A DNA stretch of 25,533 bases, taken from NCBI GenBank assembly GCA_964447495.1, contig CAYUTF010000044.1:1-25533 (forward strand). The letters are read 5' to 3'. The notes beneath the pieces are model-generated. The model was not told where the DNA came from and searched no databases. It was given only the letters and a program-made list of their open reading frames with translations. This DNA comes from an uncultured archaeon. GTDB lineage: Archaea; Asgardarchaeota; Lokiarchaeia; Sigyniarchaeales; SOKP01. This document shows positions 1 to 15,307 of this stretch, piece by piece; position 1 is the stretch's first letter, and the number at the start of each line of letters is the position of its first letter. The position numbers were made by a program, and so were the translations under genes.

Positions 1-142
1 AATGAAAAAGCACCATTTTGTTTGGATCATTACCATAATTATTATTCCAGTCTAAAATGGCAGAAGGTTTTCCCGAAGCAAGTTGTAAAATAAACATTCC
101 TATTAACCCCGAAATATCTACTTCACACGCTGCTGGAACTAA
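1..142. repeat. Diverged direct repeat, copy 1 (copy 2 at 3986..4127)
   Basis: Ungapped manual alignment at offset 3985 gives 27 mismatches in 142 nt (~81% identity), mostly synonymous. Perfect 25-bp core ACATTCCTATTAACCCCGAAATATC at 94-118. Confidence 0.92.
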
Positions 143-160
143 ATCGCCATTAAAATACAT
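1..160 (-). pseudogene. 5'-truncated second copy (C-terminal part only) of the fucose/arabinose isomerase-family gene; runs off the left window edge
   Basis: Minus strand from ATG at 160 reads MYFNGD-LVPAACEVDISGLIGMFILQLASGKPSAILDWNNNYGNDPNKMVLFH. 43 of the 47 residues after MYFNGD match the 3606..5036 protein. An in-frame TGA at 173-175 closes the frame upstream, so there is no N-terminal half. Confidence 0.85.
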
Positions 161-247
161 CTTATTAGATAATCAGTGAATTATTGCTTTTTTTCTTTAA
201 ATATAATCATTATTTGAAAGTTATGAAGATTAGAAGGAGATAAAAAC

Positions 248-862
248 ATGAATATTATATATGATGACTCCTATTCGGATGAGGAAAACGAAGATGTCAC
301 CTGGAGATTTCAGAAAATTGATGCATTTAAGGAGATTGAAGACTTTTCCCGACAAATACGTTCCCTTCTAAATTACAAGGAACAAATAGTTAAGTATCGA
401 TTTCGAAACTCTTTCACTCTACCAGTGCATCGTGATCTAACCCAACTCCTTAAGGATAAGGATAGCTTGCGAGGTGTTGCATTAAAATTTATCAATATTC
501 TTCGAGAGATCAAGAAAAATGCTGAATCAATTGAACATGGGATTCAGAATCATACCATGAATCCTAATAGTTCGATTTTACGACAACTGATTGAAGTGAT
601 GACAAAATTATTCATTCTGATCCACAAATTTTCCGAGCAGGAATTACATGACTATCCACACCTTCTTAAACTCGTTATATCCCTTGCGCGAGAAGCATAT
701 TTGGTGAAAAAATTTTTGGATCTCGATATTGAAGAGTTTCTATTGGAATTGGAACTGAGTTATGAAGGATTGGAAGATGAGATGGAAGAGATGCTCTCTC
801 TACGGGATCATATAAAACATGCACATGTACAAAAACAATTGGAGGAACGATTAAGCTCATGA
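248..862 (+). CDS. Hypothetical protein, predicted all-helical, acidic termini
   Basis: 204-aa ORF with SD-like AAGGAG at 234-239. Its stop overlaps the next start (ATGA, 859-862), suggesting translational coupling. No motif recognised. Confidence 0.75.
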   Translation: MNIIYDDSYSDEENEDVTWRFQKIDAFKEIEDFSRQIRSLLNYKEQIVKYRFRNSFTLPVHRDLTQLLKDKDSLRGVALKFINILREIKKNAESIEHGIQNHTMNPNSSILRQLIEVMTKLFILIHKFSEQELHDYPHLLKLVISLAREAYLVKKFLDLDIEEFLLELELSYEGLEDEMEEMLSLRDHIKHAHVQKQLEERLSS

Positions 863-3498
863 CCGATCATTCACACGTATCGCGGAAAAACGTGGGGGAT
901 GATCGAATTGCCCTCTGCCCTATATTTGGATGCGAATTCATGAAAAGAGTGAAACCCCTCAAGTTAGGATTTTTCGGGTTTGGAAAGTATCCAAAATGCA
1001 AGAAACATCACGTTCCACTTGTCTATATTAATGAATATATCGGGGAATTCGTAGATGGAGCATTGGCATGCTTGTTTGATAAAGCAGGGCTTCCTTCAAG
1101 CGAACTTATATCAATGGTATCCTCAAAATATCCTGATGAGTTGCAATATTTCATACATGGTTGGGTATATTGCATCACAACGGGAAGGGGAGCACCTATT
1201 ATTTCCCAATACTTGGATTCTATTTCGAAAATATACTTGAAAAAACTTAATAGAAAGCAGGCTAAGGCACTAAAAAAAGGTGCTTTAGGAAAGCATACAG
1301 GGAAATACCAATCCCTAAAGGAGGGACTAAAAATAATCGCCAACGAGTATGCTCGCGTCCTCAAGCATCTACGGGTGCATTCTGAAGTTTTAGTGAACGT
1401 AAAAAGCTTAAAATCATTATCAAGTGGACTTAGACATAACTTGAATAAATGGCAGAACAAAATCATCAAGTTATATTTGAGTAAAAATCCCTTCGAGAAT
1501 GCAGAAATGAAAAATCTTACCGAAATCAAGCGATACTACGATCAGATTCTCAATGTGAGTACATGCCGTTGTCTTATTGGGATGAATACTGCGATCAAAA
1601 AGATTAAATTAACCGCATTTGATCGGTTTTCTGCTTATGAAGAGTTTTATTCAGAGGGAATTACTAACAAGTTTAAAAGATCTGATTTAGAAAATTTAAA
1701 AAGAGTAAATAACAATAAAAACGAAAATGTTAGGGTTCTTGTTGTTGAAGAAAAAGTGTTGCCGAGAAATATAAAAGAGAATGAAGAAAATATTAATCCA
1801 GAAATCCGATTAATTGAAGAACTTATTAATTTAATTTACAAATTTGAAGAGGAAATCGTAGGGTTTTCAAATCTTGCAGAATTCAATATTATTCTCGATT
1901 TAAAAAATGGAAAAACTCTTCGTCGTTTTAGAGATAAGATTACTGCATCTAACTTATCGAAAATTCTTGGTATTAGTTTAGATACAGCTAAATTATGGTT
2001 GCGAATATTAGAAGATCCCAACAAGAACTCTATAAACATAAAGATTCGAAGAATAACGTTTAAAAAAGTTTGTGAACATTTAAAGAAATTTTGTGATATA
2101 GACGAATTTTATAAGTCAGTCTCCGAAGTGCTGGAAGTTTATCGGAATATTAGGTATGAGGTTGAATTTTTAGACAAATTGTTGACTATATTTAACAATT
2201 ATATCAAAGGAGGAGGAGGGAAATCATGGCTTTCGACCATCCTTCAAAAAAGTAGGGCGTATATATTTGATCTAGAAACTCGTCGGGGAGACGGGGGAAA
2301 AGGCGGTCCCGAACATTATGCAAAATATTTCAATTTGCTAACTAATATTCATCTAATTGATGAGAGGAGAGTAGAATTATTTAATGGGGTCAGTATCAAT
2401 AATCTGAAAGCTGAATGTCGCGCGTTTATTTTCGAGGAAATGAAAAAGAGGAATATGATGACAGATTTATGTAAGTCCAAATATTCCAGAAGAATTGTCC
2501 GCACTGAAAATAAAGAGTTGTTTGATATTGTAATTTTCTCGCTAGTAGCTCTCACTAAAATAGAAAGAGCTAGTAGTTGGAATACAGAATTTGTATATGA
2601 TTATACAAATTTAAGCAGATTAATTTCCAAGAAAAATCATAGAGATTTTCTTACAGGTAAATTCAGAGAGGGATATATCCTAGCTAAAACCGAAGGAAGG
2701 AGATTAATTGAAGAAATTAGGAAAGGTTTCTTTAAAGCGCCTAAGGCATGCCATGATGCAATATATAGGATTAAGGTACATATCAATTATCCTCGTTGGA
2801 GGAAATATGAAAAACATTTTATTGATTTAAGACGGATGCAGAATAAAGAGATTTTAGATTTGAATTTAGGGCTGGATATATATGGTAGAGGGTTTATAGA
2901 GGATGCACGTCCTTTTATATCTAAAAATGGTGAGATTATCGGAGATAGATATGTATTTCGAACAACGCGTCATCATCTGGATGAAGATCAGAAACATTAC
3001 CTGATTTTTGCCAACAGCTTGAATATATCCTTTAAAATTATTTTGCTTCCTACAGAATCTCATTGGAATCTTCATGCAAATAATAAAGAATTCAATAAAA
3101 ACAAAATAATATTAAATGCGAGAATGAAACACCTATATAAATTAATTCATTCAAATAGCATAGCTAAAAAAAAAAGTACTCAGATAATCAAATCTGAATT
3201 TAAAAATGAGACCATTACGGTAGAGGGTCAAGAAATAACACTTTGGAATAAATTCCCAGATGATATTATAGAAGAATGGATAATTAGATGGAAAGCACGT
3301 AAGATCTTATCAGATAAAGATTTTTATGAAAAATTTTACCCAAAGTTTTATAAAAAACATTATGAACCACTTCTAAAAGATATTGAATTATATAGGATTA
3401 AAGATCCAAGATGTCAGCGACCTGAATTTTGGTATTGGTATTTTGGAATCTATTTAAAGCGAAATATATATCCCAAACCCATAACTTTTGACTCGTAA
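859..3498 (+). CDS. Large multidomain protein: N-terminal Cys/His Zn-binding region, central HTH-like segments, C-terminal HNH-like nuclease motif
   Basis: 879-aa ORF. CPIFGC...CKKH near the N-terminus; HTH-like TASNLSKILGISLDTAKLWL; RHHLDEDQ...ILLPTESHWNLH (2968-3075) resembles the HH[IL]D...L..H...H HNH pattern. The ORF is solid; the function is inferred. Confidence 0.7.
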   Translation: MTDHSHVSRKNVGDDRIALCPIFGCEFMKRVKPLKLGFFGFGKYPKCKKHHVPLVYINEYIGEFVDGALACLFDKAGLPSSELISMVSSKYPDELQYFIHGWVYCITTGRGAPIISQYLDSISKIYLKKLNRKQAKALKKGALGKHTGKYQSLKEGLKIIANEYARVLKHLRVHSEVLVNVKSLKSLSSGLRHNLNKWQNKIIKLYLSKNPFENAEMKNLTEIKRYYDQILNVSTCRCLIGMNTAIKKIKLTAFDRFSAYEEFYSEGITNKFKRSDLENLKRVNNNKNENVRVLVVEEKVLPRNIKENEENINPEIRLIEELINLIYKFEEEIVGFSNLAEFNIILDLKNGKTLRRFRDKITASNLSKILGISLDTAKLWLRILEDPNKNSINIKIRRITFKKVCEHLKKFCDIDEFYKSVSEVLEVYRNIRYEVEFLDKLLTIFNNYIKGGGGKSWLSTILQKSRAYIFDLETRRGDGGKGGPEHYAKYFNLLTNIHLIDERRVELFNGVSINNLKAECRAFIFEEMKKRNMMTDLCKSKYSRRIVRTENKELFDIVIFSLVALTKIERASSWNTEFVYDYTNLSRLISKKNHRDFLTGKFREGYILAKTEGRRLIEEIRKGFFKAPKACHDAIYRIKVHINYPRWRKYEKHFIDLRRMQNKEILDLNLGLDIYGRGFIEDARPFISKNGEIIGDRYVFRTTRHHLDEDQKHYLIFANSLNISFKIILLPTESHWNLHANNKEFNKNKIILNARMKHLYKLIHSNSIAKKKSTQIIKSEFKNETITVEGQEITLWNKFPDDIIEEWIIRWKARKILSDKDFYEKFYPKFYKKHYEPLLKDIELYRIKDPRCQRPEFWYWYFGIYLKRNIYPKPITFDS

Positions 3499-3605
3499 AT
3501 AAAAAAATTCATCGAAATATAGATTATCTGAAGGAGTAATAATTATACCATAAACAAGCATTTAATAAACTATTAGTTTAGAAATTAAAATAAAAAGTAA
3601 ATTAA

Positions 3606-5036
3606 TTAATATCGGATAACATTCCAACCCAGATAAGTAGTAAGGGCTTCGTTCACAATTTCGGCAACTTCACTAAGTGAGGATGCAATATGATGAGCAA
3701 ATCCTTCCTTACATAAGGTTTTAAGGATGGCTTGTAAATTGGGAATTTCCACAACCCCGTATCCTCCAAATGTATCTAAAGAATCTTCAGTATATTTACC
3801 TTCAACAAGTAATCCTTTAATATCTCCATAAAGGTCATCGGTTTCTATTCTAAGCAACGTACAAGGTTTTGCTTTAATCCTTCCTTGAATCGCACCAAAT
3901 GTGTTTTCCTCACCATCATAATCTGCCATGATCGGGTGAACTGTCATCCTGGTATCTTTAAAAAATGATTTCGGAAGATTGCTACAATGAAATAGAACCA
4001 TCTTGTTGGGATTATCTCCATAATTATTATTCCAATCTAAAATTGCTGAGGGTTTATTGGAAGCTAACTGCAATATGTACATTCCTATTAACCCCGAAAT
4101 ATCAACTTCACAAGCAGCAGGGACTAATCCTTCACTGAAGATGCTCATGACTGCACATGGCACGATTCCGAGGTTTAAAACTATAGAAGGCCAACATTGG
4201 AAAGCAAATCCATCTAATTCTTTTTCAATGACCCATTTTTCAACGACAACTGCTAGTTTTGCTAGTTTTAAAATACCATCTTCTGGAAAAGTAGTCGTTG
4301 ATGTGTAACTTCTTATAAATTTAATCTTTTCTTCGACTTTTGAGTCATGGTCATCCAATCTATTAATTTGTCCAAAAATTTCCGAGAGGTCAATAGGTTC
4401 GATTGTAATTCCATTAAATTCTAGAATCTTTTCGCTATATCTAACAGTTTCAAAAGCATTGGGTCGAGTGCCAATTTGGCCAAATCTAGCATTCTTTAAC
4501 TTTTTAACTATTTTACAGACTTTTTCAAATTTTTTCAGATCGGTCTTAAAAGATTCTGACTTAATTGCGCATGTGTGGGTTGTAGTGAGAGAATAAGGAA
4601 TTCCATATTGATATAAAACGCTACAAGCGGAAATCTTGCCACAAAAAGCATCTCTTCTGTATTTCCTATCCATTTTTTCAATTTCATCAGAAGAAGCTTG
4701 AATTAAAACTGGAACATTAAGATCAGAAAGTTTGATAGAAACGGCAATTCCTTTTTCATCTCCAAAATTTGGGAGAATTACAAGGATTCCATCAATTTTA
4801 TCTTTATTACGCTTAAACAATTCTGCACATTTTTTCGCATCTGAATATGTTTCTACGACTCCATATTTAGTATCTTCTTCATTTAAAATAATATAATCAT
4901 ATCCTAGTTCATCCATCACCTCAATAATTTCATTTCTTCCTTCTTTAGCAAGGTGATCAGGAAAAACATCTCGATTTCCTATGATTATCCCAAAAGTACT
5001 TCTTAGTTTTTGATATTTTATATTTGTAAATGCCAT
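3606..5036 (-). CDS. L-fucose/L-arabinose isomerase family protein
   Basis: 476 aa with motifs NFGDE, RRDAFCGKIS, QCW, ACEVD, FHC and AHH typical of FucI/AraA-like sugar isomerases. Confidence 0.88.
   Translation of the reverse strand: MAFTNIKYQKLRSTFGIIIGNRDVFPDHLAKEGRNEIIEVMDELGYDYIILNEEDTKYGVVETYSDAKKCAELFKRNKDKIDGILVILPNFGDEKGIAVSIKLSDLNVPVLIQASSDEIEKMDRKYRRDAFCGKISACSVLYQYGIPYSLTTTHTCAIKSESFKTDLKKFEKVCKIVKKLKNARFGQIGTRPNAFETVRYSEKILEFNGITIEPIDLSEIFGQINRLDDHDSKVEEKIKFIRSYTSTTTFPEDGILKLAKLAVVVEKWVIEKELDGFAFQCWPSIVLNLGIVPCAVMSIFSEGLVPAACEVDISGLIGMYILQLASNKPSAILDWNNNYGDNPNKMVLFHCSNLPKSFFKDTRMTVHPIMADYDGEENTFGAIQGRIKAKPCTLLRIETDDLYGDIKGLLVEGKYTEDSLDTFGGYGVVEIPNLQAILKTLCKEGFAHHIASSLSEVAEIVNEALTTYLGWNVIRY
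3986..4127. repeat. Diverged direct repeat, copy 2 (inside the intact isomerase gene)
   Basis: Matches 1..142, with the identical 25-bp core at 4079-4103. Homology probably continues toward 3606, but copy 1 leaves the window. Confidence 0.92.
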
Positions 5037-5278
5037 AAAAATCCCAATTTCTAATGCTTTGAATTATTAAATTTAATTCTTTGTTATATTTTACTTTTTT
5101 TCTAAAAATTAAAAATCGTCTAAAATTGTAATTTCTTGAAACGGATTATGATTTTTTACCACTTTCTAACATATTACTAATAAAAAACATATACAATTCA
5201 TTATTTATTAAATCAAAAAATTTAATCTTTAAAGTTAAATTAATAAGTATAAGATTTATCGAAATTGGTTTTGAATAG

Positions 5279-6544
5279 ATGAATTTCAAATCAAGTATAG
5301 TTCAAATAAAAAAAAGATTCTTAGAACTCTTGAAGTATCAAATATTTCGTTATGCTATAATTATTCATCTTTTTTATTTTATCGGTTCCTATATTTTATT
5401 CTTTTTAGGTTTAGAAGGAGATTTTCTTGTTTATTATGAAGCAGGAGATATTTTTCTTAAAGACATTAATACTCTGTATACTCATATGTATAAATTTCCT
5501 TTCAGGTATTTTCCATTATCTGCACTATTTTTCAGTCCTTTTTCTCTTTTAAGTTTAGAATTGTCTTTTATTATTTTTAATGCAGTTAACTTAATACTTA
5601 ATATTTTAATATGTGTAATTCTCTATAAAATCATTATATTTATTAGACGTGATGAGAATGAGAAGGATGAGAAAAGAATTATAACTTATCTTAGTTTGTA
5701 TTTAATAGGGTTCCCTCAAGTATCAAATTATGTTTTAGGGCAAATAAACCTATATCTTTCCCTATTAATTTTAATATCACTTTTTATCTTTTTAAAATAC
5801 GATGGAATTAAATGGCAAATCATTGGAAGTTTCATTTTAGGAATTAGTTTTGTAATTAAACCTATTTCCATTTTCTTGATTCCCTTTTTGTTAATTATTA
5901 ATTATGATATGAATACAAGAAAAATCAAATTTGATTTTAGAAAGAGTGCGATAAGAATAATTACTGTTTTAATTCCTTTAGCATTAAATGTGATTATCTT
6001 TTTTATTTATCCTAATTTATTAGAGGATTTCATATATACTAATTTTACAAGCGAATATGCTGCTACGATTAATCCCTCATTTAGTATAACAAAGCTTATT
6101 ACAAATTTTTGTTCATTATATAATATCCCTTTTAATCAATTATTTATATTTATTGGAGTTTTATGTATTATAGGAGGGATTGGACTATTTTTATTTTTAT
6201 ATGCTAAGGATGAACAGCATTCAATCATTTATGGATATATACTAGGGATTATTATTATGTTTCTTGTATATTTTGATACTTGGGATCATCATATCTTAAT
6301 TTTAACTCCGATATTAATAATTGTTATATTTGATTTGCCTAGGAAATCGGACATAACAAAAAAGTTTCTCAAACCTGGCTTTTACGTCTTAAATTTTCTC
6401 AATTTAGTGGGGTTTGGAATAGTAGGAATTCTTACTATCTCGTTTTTTCCTTATAACTTTGTAAGTACAGTTTTCATGTTATTAATTTTATATGGAATTG
6501 GTAAATATAGTTTATTAAAGAACTCTGTTAATCGAGATGATTGA
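5279..6544 (+). CDS. GT87 (DUF2029) GT-C fold multi-pass membrane glycosyltransferase, paralog 1
   Basis: DFLVYYEAG, FRYFPLSA, GQIN, IKP and WDHH motifs; many hydrophobic segments. Confidence 0.85.
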   Translation: MNFKSSIVQIKKRFLELLKYQIFRYAIIIHLFYFIGSYILFFLGLEGDFLVYYEAGDIFLKDINTLYTHMYKFPFRYFPLSALFFSPFSLLSLELSFIIFNAVNLILNILICVILYKIIIFIRRDENEKDEKRIITYLSLYLIGFPQVSNYVLGQINLYLSLLILISLFIFLKYDGIKWQIIGSFILGISFVIKPISIFLIPFLLIINYDMNTRKIKFDFRKSAIRIITVLIPLALNVIIFFIYPNLLEDFIYTNFTSEYAATINPSFSITKLITNFCSLYNIPFNQLFIFIGVLCIIGGIGLFLFLYAKDEQHSIIYGYILGIIIMFLVYFDTWDHHILILTPILIIVIFDLPRKSDITKKFLKPGFYVLNFLNLVGFGIVGILTISFFPYNFVSTVFMLLILYGIGKYSLLKNSVNRDD

Positions 6545-7296
6545 ATTCTATGGAAAGCATCATAGTTAGAAGAAAACAAATCCGAAAACATTTTGATTCA
6601 ATAGCCTCTCAATATTCTAAAGAACTTCCCATTCATTATCAGAAATATTTACTTAAAAGAAAAATGTTTTTTATTTTAAAATATTGTGAAAATTTACATA
6701 ATAAAATAGGTTTAGATATTGGTTGTGGACAAGGGATATATACACATTATTTAAATCAATATGTAAATAAAATGGTGGGAATTGATTTTTCTATTAATAA
6801 TGTAAAAAACACAATTTTTAATTTTGCAGATAATAAATATGCTATTAATTCTGATGGTGGAAATCTCCCTCTTAAGTCAAATCATTTTGATTTTTGTTTT
6901 TGTATCAATGTATTACATCACATCCCCTCGATTGATTTACAGAAAAACTTTTTAGATGAGATGATTAGAGTAGTAAAACCAAAAGGAAAAATTTTTGTTT
7001 TTGATTTATCACAGAAAAATCCTCTATTTACCTTTTATTTAAAACATATTTTTCCAAAATTAAGAGCCATCGATGAGGGTGATGAATTATTTTTTAGTGA
7101 GAATGATATTATAAAATTGACAAGAAGTAAGTCAAAACCTATTGCCGTTGAATTTTATTCCTTCCTGCCTGATATTGTACCAAAATTCATAATGAATATC
7201 ATTGTAAGGATTGAAATGTTAATAGAAAAAACAATATTTAAAAGATTTGCAATGCACCAAGTAATTGTGCTAAAAAAGAATAGTTCTATACGATAA
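6541..7296 (+). CDS. Class I SAM-dependent methyltransferase (Methyltransf_11-like)
   Basis: LDIGCGQG motif I, GIDFS, LPLKSNHFD, VLHH, RVVKPKG. The start may be the ATG at 6550 rather than the TTG at 6541. Confidence 0.88.
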   Translation: MNSMESIIVRRKQIRKHFDSIASQYSKELPIHYQKYLLKRKMFFILKYCENLHNKIGLDIGCGQGIYTHYLNQYVNKMVGIDFSINNVKNTIFNFADNKYAINSDGGNLPLKSNHFDFCFCINVLHHIPSIDLQKNFLDEMIRVVKPKGKIFVFDLSQKNPLFTFYLKHIFPKLRAIDEGDELFFSENDIIKLTRSKSKPIAVEFYSFLPDIVPKFIMNIIVRIEMLIEKTIFKRFAMHQVIVLKKNSSIR

Positions 7297-8570
7297 TGAA
7301 CATTAAAAGTATAATTAATAATAAAAAAGAGCGATTTCGAGAACTCTTAGATCATAAAATATTTCGATATGCTATTATAGTTCATTCTTTTTACTTTATC
7401 CTTTCATTTGTGTTATTCTTTACCTTTTTTTACAATCAAAATGATTTTATAGTCTTCTATACGTCAGGAAAAGCAATTTTCCAAGACATCACCAATCTCT
7501 ATAGTCAAGAAAATTATTATATTCATTTTAGGTATTTCCCATTATCAGCAATATTTTATATTCCCTTTTCTCTATTTAACCTTGATTTAGGGTATATTCT
7601 TTTCTCTTTTTTTAATTTATTTCTTACTTTTCTCACTTGTATTATTTTATATAAAATTATTTTTTTTATTCGAGGAGATGATCATGAGAAAGGAGATGAT
7701 AGAATTATCCTATATATTAGTTTATTTTTAATGGCAATGCCTCATATTGATAATTACATATTAGGACAGATAAATTTACAGGTAACACTTTTGATTTTAT
7801 TATCAATATTCATATTCATTAAATATAAAGGGAATAAATGGCAGTTAATTGGAGGATTTCTCTTAGGAATAAGTATAAATATTAAACCTAGTGCTATTTT
7901 TATAATTCCATTTTTAATAGTTATGAATTTTACGTTAAAAAAAGAGAATTTTAATCAAGTCTTTAAAGTAAACATAATACGAATAATTGGTACAATAATA
8001 CCATTATCTTTAAATATTATTTTCTTTCTAATTTACCCCTCATTATGGGAAGGCTTTTTAATAAATAATTTTGGTGGAAATCGAACTATTGACATAAATT
8101 TTTCCTTTAGTATAACAAAACTCATTATTAACTTTTGTTCTTTTTATAGTTTTCCATTCAATCAAACACTTATTTTTTTGATAATAACCGGTCTTTTTGG
8201 TGGTATTGGTTTTATAATCTTTTTTTATGGAAGAAATACACGTAATTCAATTGTTTATGGGTTTACTCTCGGAATAATAATCTTACTATTAGTTTATTTC
8301 GATTCATGGGATCATCATCTATTAACTCTTATCCCAATGCTGATATTAATTATTTTTAATTTACCAAGAAAATCCAAAATAACAAAAAAGTTCATTAAGC
8401 CAAGTTTTTTCTTTTTTTGTTTTATAGATTTAGCATTTCTTGGGATATGGCACCTTACAGAATCATGGTTTCCATTTAATTTTATGGCAGCAATATTTTT
8501 AATACTAACTTTTTATGGAATAAGCAGATATATTATTAATCCAAAAAAAGAATATCTAACTCCTAATTAA
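7296..8570 (+). CDS. GT87 (DUF2029) GT-C fold membrane glycosyltransferase, paralog 2
   Basis: DFIVFYTSG, FRYFPLSA, GQIN, IKP and WDHH motifs; colinear with 5279..6544 over its full length. Confidence 0.85.
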   Translation: MNIKSIINNKKERFRELLDHKIFRYAIIVHSFYFILSFVLFFTFFYNQNDFIVFYTSGKAIFQDITNLYSQENYYIHFRYFPLSAIFYIPFSLFNLDLGYILFSFFNLFLTFLTCIILYKIIFFIRGDDHEKGDDRIILYISLFLMAMPHIDNYILGQINLQVTLLILLSIFIFIKYKGNKWQLIGGFLLGISINIKPSAIFIIPFLIVMNFTLKKENFNQVFKVNIIRIIGTIIPLSLNIIFFLIYPSLWEGFLINNFGGNRTIDINFSFSITKLIINFCSFYSFPFNQTLIFLIITGLFGGIGFIIFFYGRNTRNSIVYGFTLGIIILLLVYFDSWDHHLLTLIPMLILIIFNLPRKSKITKKFIKPSFFFFCFIDLAFLGIWHLTESWFPFNFMAAIFLILTFYGISRYIINPKKEYLTPN

Positions 8571-15217: not shown

Positions 15218-15234
15218 AAAAGGAGATTTTTAAG

Positions 15235-15307
15235 TAGCCCAGCACGGATTCGAACCGTGGTCACGGGGTTCAGGGCCCCAGATGCTTGACCGCTACACCA
15301 CTGGGCT
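15235..15307 (-). tRNA. tRNA-Gln, anticodon CTG (no encoded CCA)
   Basis: Cloverleaf: acceptor AGCCCAG/CTGGGCT-A with the A1-U72 pair typical of archaeal tRNA-Gln, D stem GTGT/GCAT, anticodon arm TGGGG-CCCTGAA-CCCCG, T arm CACGG-TTCGAAT-CCGTG. Confidence 0.93.

Follow-up and report, generated by a model that had tools for sequence, protein, structure and literature searches.

Why does one end of a contig from an uncultured lokiarchaeon repeat the 3' part of an isomerase gene that stands intact farther along the same contig, and what are the two genes that lie between the copies? The window analysed here is the entire contig CAYUTF010000044.1 (25,533 nucleotides (nt), C44 below) of the genome bin G000 (assembly GCA_964447495.1), and its position 1 is a contig end. 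The intervening genes encode one protein of 204 amino acids (aa) and one of 879 aa. We hold it to be reasonably probable that this pair is a free-standing cassette of the homing-endonuclease type, which would spread by break repair and bring with it a replacement 3' end immune to its own nuclease. The cassette sits within the 3' region of the isomerase gene and does not inactivate that gene. From the comparisons below we infer an active nuclease in this copy, its cut site, the route of repair and the roles of the 204-aa protein and of the N-terminal domain (N-domain) of the 879-aa protein.

The following features of the window are referred to throughout.

1-160 (minus strand): start of the displaced isomerase 3' part; open reading frame (ORF) with ATG at 158-160, homologous to the intact gene over 1-142
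94-118 (no strand): 25-nt stretch identical to 4079-4103, encoding DISGLIGM; P 0.03-0.08 by shuffling
143-247 (no strand): left junction and the stretch leading up to the 204-aa gene, with an A/T-rich TATA-like block, TTTAAATATAA, at 196-206
248-862 (plus strand): gene of the 204-aa partner, of no known family, always placed directly upstream of the big gene with overlapping stop and start
859-1743 (plus strand): N-domain of the 879-aa protein, which defines the family; a Cys/His zinc-ribbon-like start, then a helical bundle
1744-3498 (plus strand): variable C-terminal module (C-module) of the 879-aa protein, isomerase-linked type, with the invariant motif RHHLDxD...SHWxxH...N
3499-3605 (no strand): intergenic spacer, on which the 879-aa gene and the intact isomerase gene converge with their stops
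3606-5036 (minus strand): intact gene of a 476-aa isomerase with a Fucose_iso_C domain (Pfam)
3986-4127 (minus strand): part of the intact gene repeated at 1-142 (pairwise comparison)
4176-4190 (minus strand): SIVLN, codons 283-287 of the intact gene, a candidate nuclease recognition or immunity site

A displaced isomerase 3' end at the contig margin

Positions 1-142 match 3986-4127 at 81% identity, with 27 of 142 nt mismatched, zero gaps and both copies on the minus strand; the translations of the 47 aa from LVPAACEVD onward differ at four positions. The longest identical run is 25 nt (94-118, equal to 4079-4103); if a single mismatch is allowed, it extends to 34 nt (94-127). The left copy has no 5' half: its ATG at 158-160 has a minus-strand TGA stop just upstream, at 173-175. 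Between the copies, the genes at 248-862 and 859-3498 overlap by ATGA. The repeat, the stop, the identical run and the two coupled genes are as described in the first-pass annotation, which was made from the letters of the window and had proposed an integrase-less cassette that repairs its target with its own allele of the 3' half. The 476-aa protein scores 83.4 bits against Fucose_iso_C (Pfam cut-off 29.3). Its score against the NCBIfam sulfoquinovose isomerase equivalog is 100.5, so far below the cut-off of 700 that we leave the substrate unassigned.

Contig C104 begins with the exact reverse complement of window 1-55, a 55-nt overlap, and completes the left copy. The resulting orphan tail has 179 codons (window 1-160 plus C104:1-435) and runs, without an internal stop, to a normal stop. 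Past this stop lie genes of 368, 427 and 240 aa; in G000 the 368-aa gene thus adjoins the orphan tail, not the intact isomerase gene. A normal stop to the left is one thing that the first-pass annotation had envisaged. The other, an array of further units of cargo plus 3' half, did not materialize: beyond the orphan, C104 holds no second unit but the ancestral neighbour genes.

The repeat touches a contig end and the contamination of the bin is 3.75%, both of which would fit an assembly or binning artefact that joined two strains or species. Counter to this, Logan contigs, the product of an independent assembler, span the junction 142/143 without differences in four salt-marsh runs (X1-X4). 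A single 12,403-nt contig of X1, possibly the source sample, spans 1-5100 and reaches 196 nt leftward of position 1; in X2, X3 and X4, which are other samples, contigs cover 1-1248, 1-349 and 1-271, all continuing past position 1. Because contigs of four runs, from four samples, cross the left junction identically over positions 1-271 or more, the arrangement is no assembly chimera, an objection that the first-pass annotation had itself raised. The exact 55-nt end shared by C104 and C44 and the recurrence of the layout in unrelated metagenome contigs likewise speak against an artefact, which we regard as scarcely credible. Within 1-5100, the contigs of the four runs, which drop rare variants, contain no joint skipping 143-4127 and no circle junction. 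A joint of 5014 to 2018 listed in the run contigs was rejected: it rests on 18-21-nt matches of another contig.

Both tails evolved under purifying selection, as the first-pass annotation had concluded for the two 3' halves. Mismatches between the orphan and resident tails fall mostly at third codon positions (98, compared with 34 at first and 13 at second positions). The median nonsynonymous divergence (dN) of the orphan tail to 19 orthologs is 0.137, within the 0.12-0.17 of true orthologs, and the orphan deviates at just one of 86 positions that are invariant among 20 full genes. Being undecayed, the orphan tail was either recently displaced or is still in use.

Tandem paralogs are common in G000, and the repeat could on that account derive from a local tandem duplication of the isomerase gene, with the pair inserted into one copy whose 5' half was then lost. 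The orphan tail is, however, no nearer to the resident tail (72% nt and 77% aa identity) than to the orthologs in other species (70-78% nt), among which that of G014 is the closest (78% nt, 85.5% aa). A second close isomerase copy is absent in all relatives; in 20 of the 24 genomes examined within the genus there is a single ortholog and at most a 22-31% paralog. Together with the relatives described next, this makes a duplication very improbable.

Empty sites, hybrid genes and native remnants in relatives

We compared 19 isomerase loci of relatives in the same genus. Twelve are empty sites of the kind that the cassette hypothesis had anticipated, in which the 368-aa gene directly abuts the isomerase stop. 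Three (G007, G004 and G016) hold an ortholog of the 879-aa gene, or its C-module, beside the isomerase gene. A further three hold an unrelated insert of ~0.9 kb downstream of it, and one differs downstream.

The three cassette-bearing species have hybrid isomerase genes. When codons are aligned, the 5' part of the gene in G007, G016 and G004 has 92-98% identity to that of G002, G020 and G005 up to alignment nt ~810, and only ~70-80% remains from nt ~840 to the stop; G020 and G005 are 85-100% identical throughout the same alignment. The first differences of the G007 type come at nt 854-866, directly after a 48-nt stretch identical in all. Phylogenies of the two parts differ accordingly: the 5' tree groups G002, G020, G005, G007 and G016 (100/100), and the 3' tree sets a clade of G007, G016 and G004 (100/100) apart from G002, G020 and G005 (99/98). 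Beyond the cassette in G007 and G004, 91% identity to G002 resumes at the last 15 isomerase codons (ETLSNYLGWNIIYPK, stop), and G002-like sequence continues from this remnant into the 368-aa gene. With a native-like remnant beside a diverged intact tail, it is the tail of the intact gene that is foreign in the G007-type species and the remnant that is native. The chimera predicted by the first-pass annotation, native 5' part and foreign 3' part with the native remnant beyond, is thus realized in cassette-bearing relatives, and it is the reverse of the pattern expected from a decaying duplicate. By analogy with these relatives, the 3' part of the intact G000 gene would also be an incoming allele.

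Some of the loci depart from the full layout. In G016 (L023, G016:C9:762-2804) the C-module stands alone as a 680-aa ORF, the N-domain and the 204-aa gene being missing, and the left side of the isomerase locus is replaced by a membrane-protein gene; the metagenome loci L119 and L120 also have a stand-alone C-module ORF beside the isomerase gene, without N-domain and 204-aa gene. The unrelated inserts at the isomerase-downstream spot encode a zinc-ribbon membrane ORF of 212-216 aa (G020, L026:2287-2937; G010, L027:8554-9192) or a 257-aa methyltransferase (G009, L028:11339-12112). The G020 insert did not render the isomerase gene chimeric.

Remnant boundaries and an allele patch

A metagenome scan with the C-module as query yielded 12 loci, nine of them adjoining an isomerase gene. 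Isomerase-tail remnants lie to the left of the cassette in five: from codon 288 in L113 (at least 160 codons, ending at the locus edge), from codon 333 in L119, from codon 420 in L114 and L115, and over the last 15 codons in L116. No such remnant was found at E<=1e-3 in L117 and L118. All metagenome remnants are open and have 73-81% nt identity to the adjoining intact copy. At L113:480-760, between remnant and cassette, lies a piece of the 3' end of a 368-aa gene, and this junction is a non-homologous join carrying donor DNA.

Across loci, remnants start at codons 288, ~300 (G000, 297-304), 333, 420 and 461, and none starts upstream of 288. The two longest begin just 3' of the G007-type allele switch (codons ~272-285). 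Crossovers and joins cluster at codons ~272-304 in three separate events. Every orphan tail (window plus C104, L113, L119, L114, L115, L022 and L024) is an open frame to a normal stop, in the case of G000 within a genome of 31% G+C in which stops are expected to arise fast. Open orphan tails are either young and quickly deleted, or retained for a reason.

These boundaries bear on the mode of entry that the first-pass annotation had preferred, crossover of a 3,985-bp circle at the 25-bp core. Elements with a tyrosine or serine integrase restore their target with a carried 3' end, giving direct repeats at both borders, and the pair might be a new recombinase or use one supplied in trans. In favour of such a site-specific element, the 25-nt run is identical between the two copies where all 19 orthologs differ from it by 2-6 nt, and it ends 24 nt short of the end of homology. 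The run is only marginally unusual, however: when mismatch positions are shuffled, a run of at least 25 nt arises in 8% of trials over 142 nt and in 3% over the whole 519-nt duplicated part. Remnant boundaries vary between independent loci, extra donor DNA lies at the L113 join, and the G007-type switch (nt 854) is away from the core (nt 939). The cassette thus differs from integrase elements in lacking an integrase gene and a fixed identical core and in having borders that vary between events. Nor was a recombinase family found in it with Pfam, NCBIfam, PHROGs or PADLOC, or a recombinase fold by structure comparison, in agreement with the first-pass impression that none is visible. We consider crossover at the core improbable.

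Homing by a free-standing nuclease would account for the clustering at codons ~272-304, and a short allele difference lies at that place. Within the otherwise invariant context FAFQCWPSI..NFGIVPCAVMS, all 12 cassette-linked alleles (G000, G004, G007, G016 and eight metagenome loci) read SIVSN or SIVLN, and 15 of the 16 cassette-less alleles read SIQDN or SMQDN, G013 being the exception. The hypergeometric probability of this association is ~4e-7, for rows that are kin. The patch is located just upstream of the starts of the longest remnants. We take it as a candidate for the place of cleavage, with a variant that would be immune, and regard the association as a hint that falls short of proof.

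A family of gene pairs with exchangeable C-terminal modules

Six further copies of the N-domain (~290 aa) and the 204-aa partner are present in G000, at 35-58% identity. Within the genus, 17 of 31 genomes contain the N-domain, 1-9 times each and at 51 places in total, and its profile finds only 104 clusters among 1.84 billion representatives. The architecture of a small gene plus a big gene is kept across family loci; the C-terminal parts form at least 15 classes that are mutually without detectable similarity. Counts across loci overstate support, since kin are not independent. The C-module class of the window is found in 5 of the 42 genomes available for the genus. Of the 22 homologs of the module in databases, 12 stand alone, as proteins of 573-707 aa.

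Several family members carry Pfam domains of nuclease type. Among 20 locus proteins, four have matches above Pfam cut-offs (HNH_3 in L029, LAGLIDADG_3 in L052 and L035, RNase_T in L046) and five score just below them (HNH_3 in L057, LAGLIDADG_3 in L060, GIY-YIG in L042, L050 and L054); the other 11 have no such match. At E<=1e-3, 56 representatives gave LAGLIDADG_3 in eight cases, HNH_3 in five, DUF4379 in four, GIY-YIG and Intein_splicing in two each and RNase_T in one. This domain set is that of homing endonucleases, and it suits the alternative mentioned in the first-pass annotation, mobility through the nuclease plus host recombination.

Family members can lie close together, four within ~66 kb of G016 (C78:123011-189043) and three on G044:C46. 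In L035:928-4026 (G004:C54) the LAGLIDADG_3 match (31.8 bits) falls inside a weak Intein_splicing match (30.7 bits, cut-off 35.8), and this big protein may contain an intein within a family member. In-frame stops mark decaying copies of the big gene at G000:C1:74743-77028, G020:C160 and G022:C73; that of G020 also has a 189-nt gap relative to G016.

The model of the N-domain (predicted local distance difference test, pLDDT, 85.5) shows a short zinc-ribbon-like start and a helical bundle. Its best VIA-align scores were Z 5.6 on designed or spectrin-like helical bundles and 4.7 on MukF, with no solved recombinase among them. The C-module model (pLDDT 61.8) had no structural match; its motif RHHLDxD...SHWxxH...N is invariant in the isomerase-linked class, and some orthologs have weak helix-turn-helix matches. 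PDB searches with the queries A1, A2, A3 and the C-module gave nothing below E 0.3. For the 204-aa protein, Pfam, NCBIfam, PHROGs, PADLOC and PDB hold no known relative and the protein atlas no usable match, a weak PADLOC match to JetA (E 0.003) apart. The A/T-rich block TTTAAATATAA at 196-206, upstream of its gene, is common to cassette-bearing relatives and may serve as a promoter.

The same layout at other target genes

We searched 700 nt on either side of each pair for direct repeats at E<=1e-5, with mock two-gene windows in G000 as control. Repeats flank 6 of 39 evaluable family loci and 4 of 641 mock windows, and the mock matches include tandem paralogs (for example on C92). The G000 locus and L068 were left unscored, a flank being cut by a contig end, yet both show a repeat. 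At five kinds of target the repeat is the 3' end of a long neighbouring ORF. These are the isomerase gene, a coiled-coil gene of 227 aa (G000 C1 and G008), a membrane-protein gene of 419 aa (L038), an HD-domain gene of 207 aa and, at L045, a gene of 210 aa. The repeats at L029, L033 and L044 are shorter and are not tied to a gene. The pair may lie on either strand relative to its target. Thus the expectation that homologs of the N-domain would stand beside partially duplicated genes holds for several targets besides the isomerase gene.

The HD-domain gene repeats the isomerase case. That of G016 is 92-98% identical to that of G005 up to nt 510 and 70-75% identical after it; past the big gene, a remnant of 58 codons matches the tail of the G005 gene at 85-93%. 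The hybrid HD gene is present in G016, G020 and G044. Between three species the big gene of the HD-linked cassette is 97-99.7% identical, the flanks ~90-97% and the 204-aa gene 88-95%; recent spread of this cassette was considered, and from the mosaic identity pattern we drew no conclusion. Partial copies of the HD-gene 3' end also lie at G046:C252:5542-5922, G005:C16:2-220 and G006:C54:1-264, two of them at contig starts.

At four other places in G000 (C13:33700-36444, C18:30388-38565, C30:16107-24584 and C37:11034-17258) a gene is followed by an orphan copy of its own tail. These copies comprise the last 41-68 residues, are 57-71% identical and lie 1.5-7.6 kb from the gene. None of the intervening cargo resembles a nuclease; it comprises a TIR-domain protein, a metallophosphoesterase with an ABC ATPase, proteins of the beta-helix and WD40 types, and glycosyl- and methyltransferases. 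The same route of tail displacement may bring in other accessory genes. Two further candidates in G000, ADH (C78) and a ubiquitin-like gene (C62), proved to be paralog pieces.

Elsewhere in the window, at 5279-8570, a 251-aa gene lies between two similar genes for membrane proteins (421 and 424 aa) that resemble each other at the N-terminus. The 421-aa protein is also matched twice in L113, upstream of the isomerase gene there. A tRNA-Gln (CTG) at 15234-15307 (minus strand) is the sole Rfam or ARAGORN match in the window; within 1-5100 there are no Rfam families or tRNAs.

How the cassette may spread

The observations suggest the following sequence of events. The cassette would travel with a diverged copy that replaces the 3' part of its target gene. 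Its nuclease would cut alleles that lack the cassette, at a highly conserved stretch near codons 283-304. The 5' side of the break would then invade a cassette-bearing allele, and repair synthesis would copy the donor 3' part together with the cassette. If the far end were sealed by homology in the downstream neighbour, no remnant would be left; if it were sealed by end joining to the broken 3' side of the recipient, the tail of the recipient would be orphaned beyond the cassette. The cassette-linked allele would be immune through its site substitutions, Q-D to V-S or V-L, and later deletions would shorten or remove the orphan tail.

Such a process accounts for the hybrid genes, the native remnants and the absence of remnant starts upstream of codon 288. 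The donor DNA in L113 and the allele patch (codons 284-285) are accounted for as well, as are the domains found in the family, its patchy multi-copy distribution and the decayed copies.

Alternatively, the pair could be passive cargo, an accessory pair (for example of a defence type, with swappable nuclease effectors) that is moved by homology-facilitated illegitimate recombination and has no mobility of its own. One-sided homology followed by an illegitimate join explains chimera and remnant equally well, and in L113 a non-homologous join does run from isomerase codon 288 into the interior of a 368-aa gene. Arguing for the same possibility are the other G000 loci with a 3' remnant beyond non-nuclease cargo, the unrelated inserts at the isomerase-downstream spot in G020, G010 and G009, and the fact that variable nuclease domains on a conserved scaffold also occur in defence systems. 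We nonetheless think passive transport unlikely. It leaves the clustering of three events at codons ~272-304, with no remnant starting further upstream, without a cause, as it does the Q-D to V-S/L patch at the junction in 12 of 12 cassette-linked alleles. The set of LAGLIDADG_3, HNH_3, GIY-YIG and intein-type domains is a homing-endonuclease set, and PADLOC gave just the one weak JetA match to the 204-aa protein. Inserts in G020, moreover, left the isomerase gene non-chimeric.

Several points weigh against homing by a nuclease of the pair. Few independent lineages, perhaps two, stand behind the allele association, the metagenome alleles being close kin, and plain linkage could yield the association between patch and cassette. 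At the set threshold, 33 of the 39 evaluable family loci are without a flank repeat, and the remnants beyond non-nuclease cargo in G000 hint at a general host route. With paralogs in G000 only 35-58% identical, no recent jump between sites is seen. In protein identity, the 3' part of the intact G000 gene is about as close to cassette-linked alleles (76-83%) as to cassette-less ones (75-82%), and the 5' and 3' trees gave no supported placement of the G000 isomerase parts; G000 is without a close relative, and all relatives are at about the same distance from both parts of its intact gene. As for the proteins, the N-domain model has no Foldseek match at E<=0.001 (best E 0.23), and the C-module model is poor precisely at the His motif (pLDDT 27-44). 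The C-module has no nuclease match in Pfam, NCBIfam, PHROGs or PADLOC; hhalign against the HNH_3 class aligned only a helix-turn-helix-like stretch, and its LAGLIDADG and helix-turn-helix neighbours in the language-model protein atlas are weak (0.76-0.80). To our knowledge, a large conserved N-domain and a 204-aa partner are unlike the features of known homing endonucleases.

Relation to known systems

The closest precedent is the mORF of fungal mitochondria (Paquin et al. 1994, as cited in PMC3630166). A later account lists mORFs for Allomyces macrogynus atp6, Glomus sp. atp6, atp9, cox2 and nad3, Rhizopus atp9 and Mortierella cox2, in the order gene core, foreign C-terminal part, endonuclease ORF and displaced native C*-terminal part (PMC3630166). 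The same account gives the nt identity of Glomus mORFs to sister species as 64-81% for the inserted tail and 91-98% for the native tail, describes the hybrid gene as keeping its reading frame whole, and states that nuclease activity was shown for the fungal element (PMC3630166). Shared with the isomerase cassette are the layout, the hybrid target gene as seen in G007, G016 and G004, the displaced native tail and the empty sites. In contrast to the mORF, the cassette resides in an archaeal chromosome, enters ordinary cellular genes and encodes a putative nuclease. It also consists of two genes, the 204-aa partner and a protein of 700-1150 aa with a conserved N-domain, and it lies on either strand relative to its target with no in-frame fusion to the inserted tail.

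In T-even phages, free-standing endonucleases (seg and mob; 'intronless homing') are described as cutting the endonuclease-less genome in a neighbouring gene and as being inherited with co-converted flanking sequence (PMC2988022). Those genes, too, lie between or beside conserved genes, and their nuclease families are GIY-YIG and HNH. Phage events, however, resolve both flanks by homology and leave no duplicated target tail, and the phage proteins are small and single. Phage homing also occurs in co-infection, whereas for the cassette a transfer of DNA from cell to cell among related species is required.

One-sided homology plus an illegitimate join has been put forward to explain how C-termini are displaced at Rhs and type VI secretion system (T6SS) loci (PMC5361080). 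At Rhs, contact-dependent inhibition (CDI) and T6SS loci, as here, a new 3' end arrives with linked genes and the old 3' end is pushed downstream as an orphan. In those loci the selected payload is the variable tail of a polymorphic toxin; in the cassette the tail is a conserved part of an enzyme and the payload lies between the tails. In the literature searched, papers on Asgard mobile elements included, the accessible texts, which cover the field incompletely, hold no description of the pair family or of a mORF-like element on a prokaryotic chromosome.

Biological significance

More tentatively, and with considerable doubt, we raise the possibility that Asgard-type archaea harbour, in these pairs, a new class of homing elements of cellular genomes, without intron or intein, that enter the middle of conserved chromosomal genes with an immune 3' end. 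The N-domain and 204-aa partner would then form new, shared accessory machinery that handles break ends, controls cutting or serves in transfer, and swappable LAGLIDADG, HNH, GIY-YIG and other DNA-cutting modules would each target a different host gene. The module in the window would represent a new nuclease type built around RHHLDxD...SHWxxH.

The family offers dozens of long modules for DNA recognition, probably of high specificity, and the neighbouring gene with its orphan tail reveals the natural target of each, which opens the target sites to direct tests. It also draws attention to a conserved scaffold of two proteins that has no counterpart of known fold or function. When bins of this kind show partial gene copies at the ends of contigs, these are not necessarily assembly errors. 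If the proposed mode of spread is true, it would explain mosaic housekeeping genes and the orphan tails that annotation pipelines call pseudogenes, and cassettes of this kind would drive the exchange of pieces of ordinary genes between species. It would also mean that homing free of introns and inteins, as in phages and fungal mitochondria, acts on the chromosomes of free-living archaea near the eukaryotic stem.

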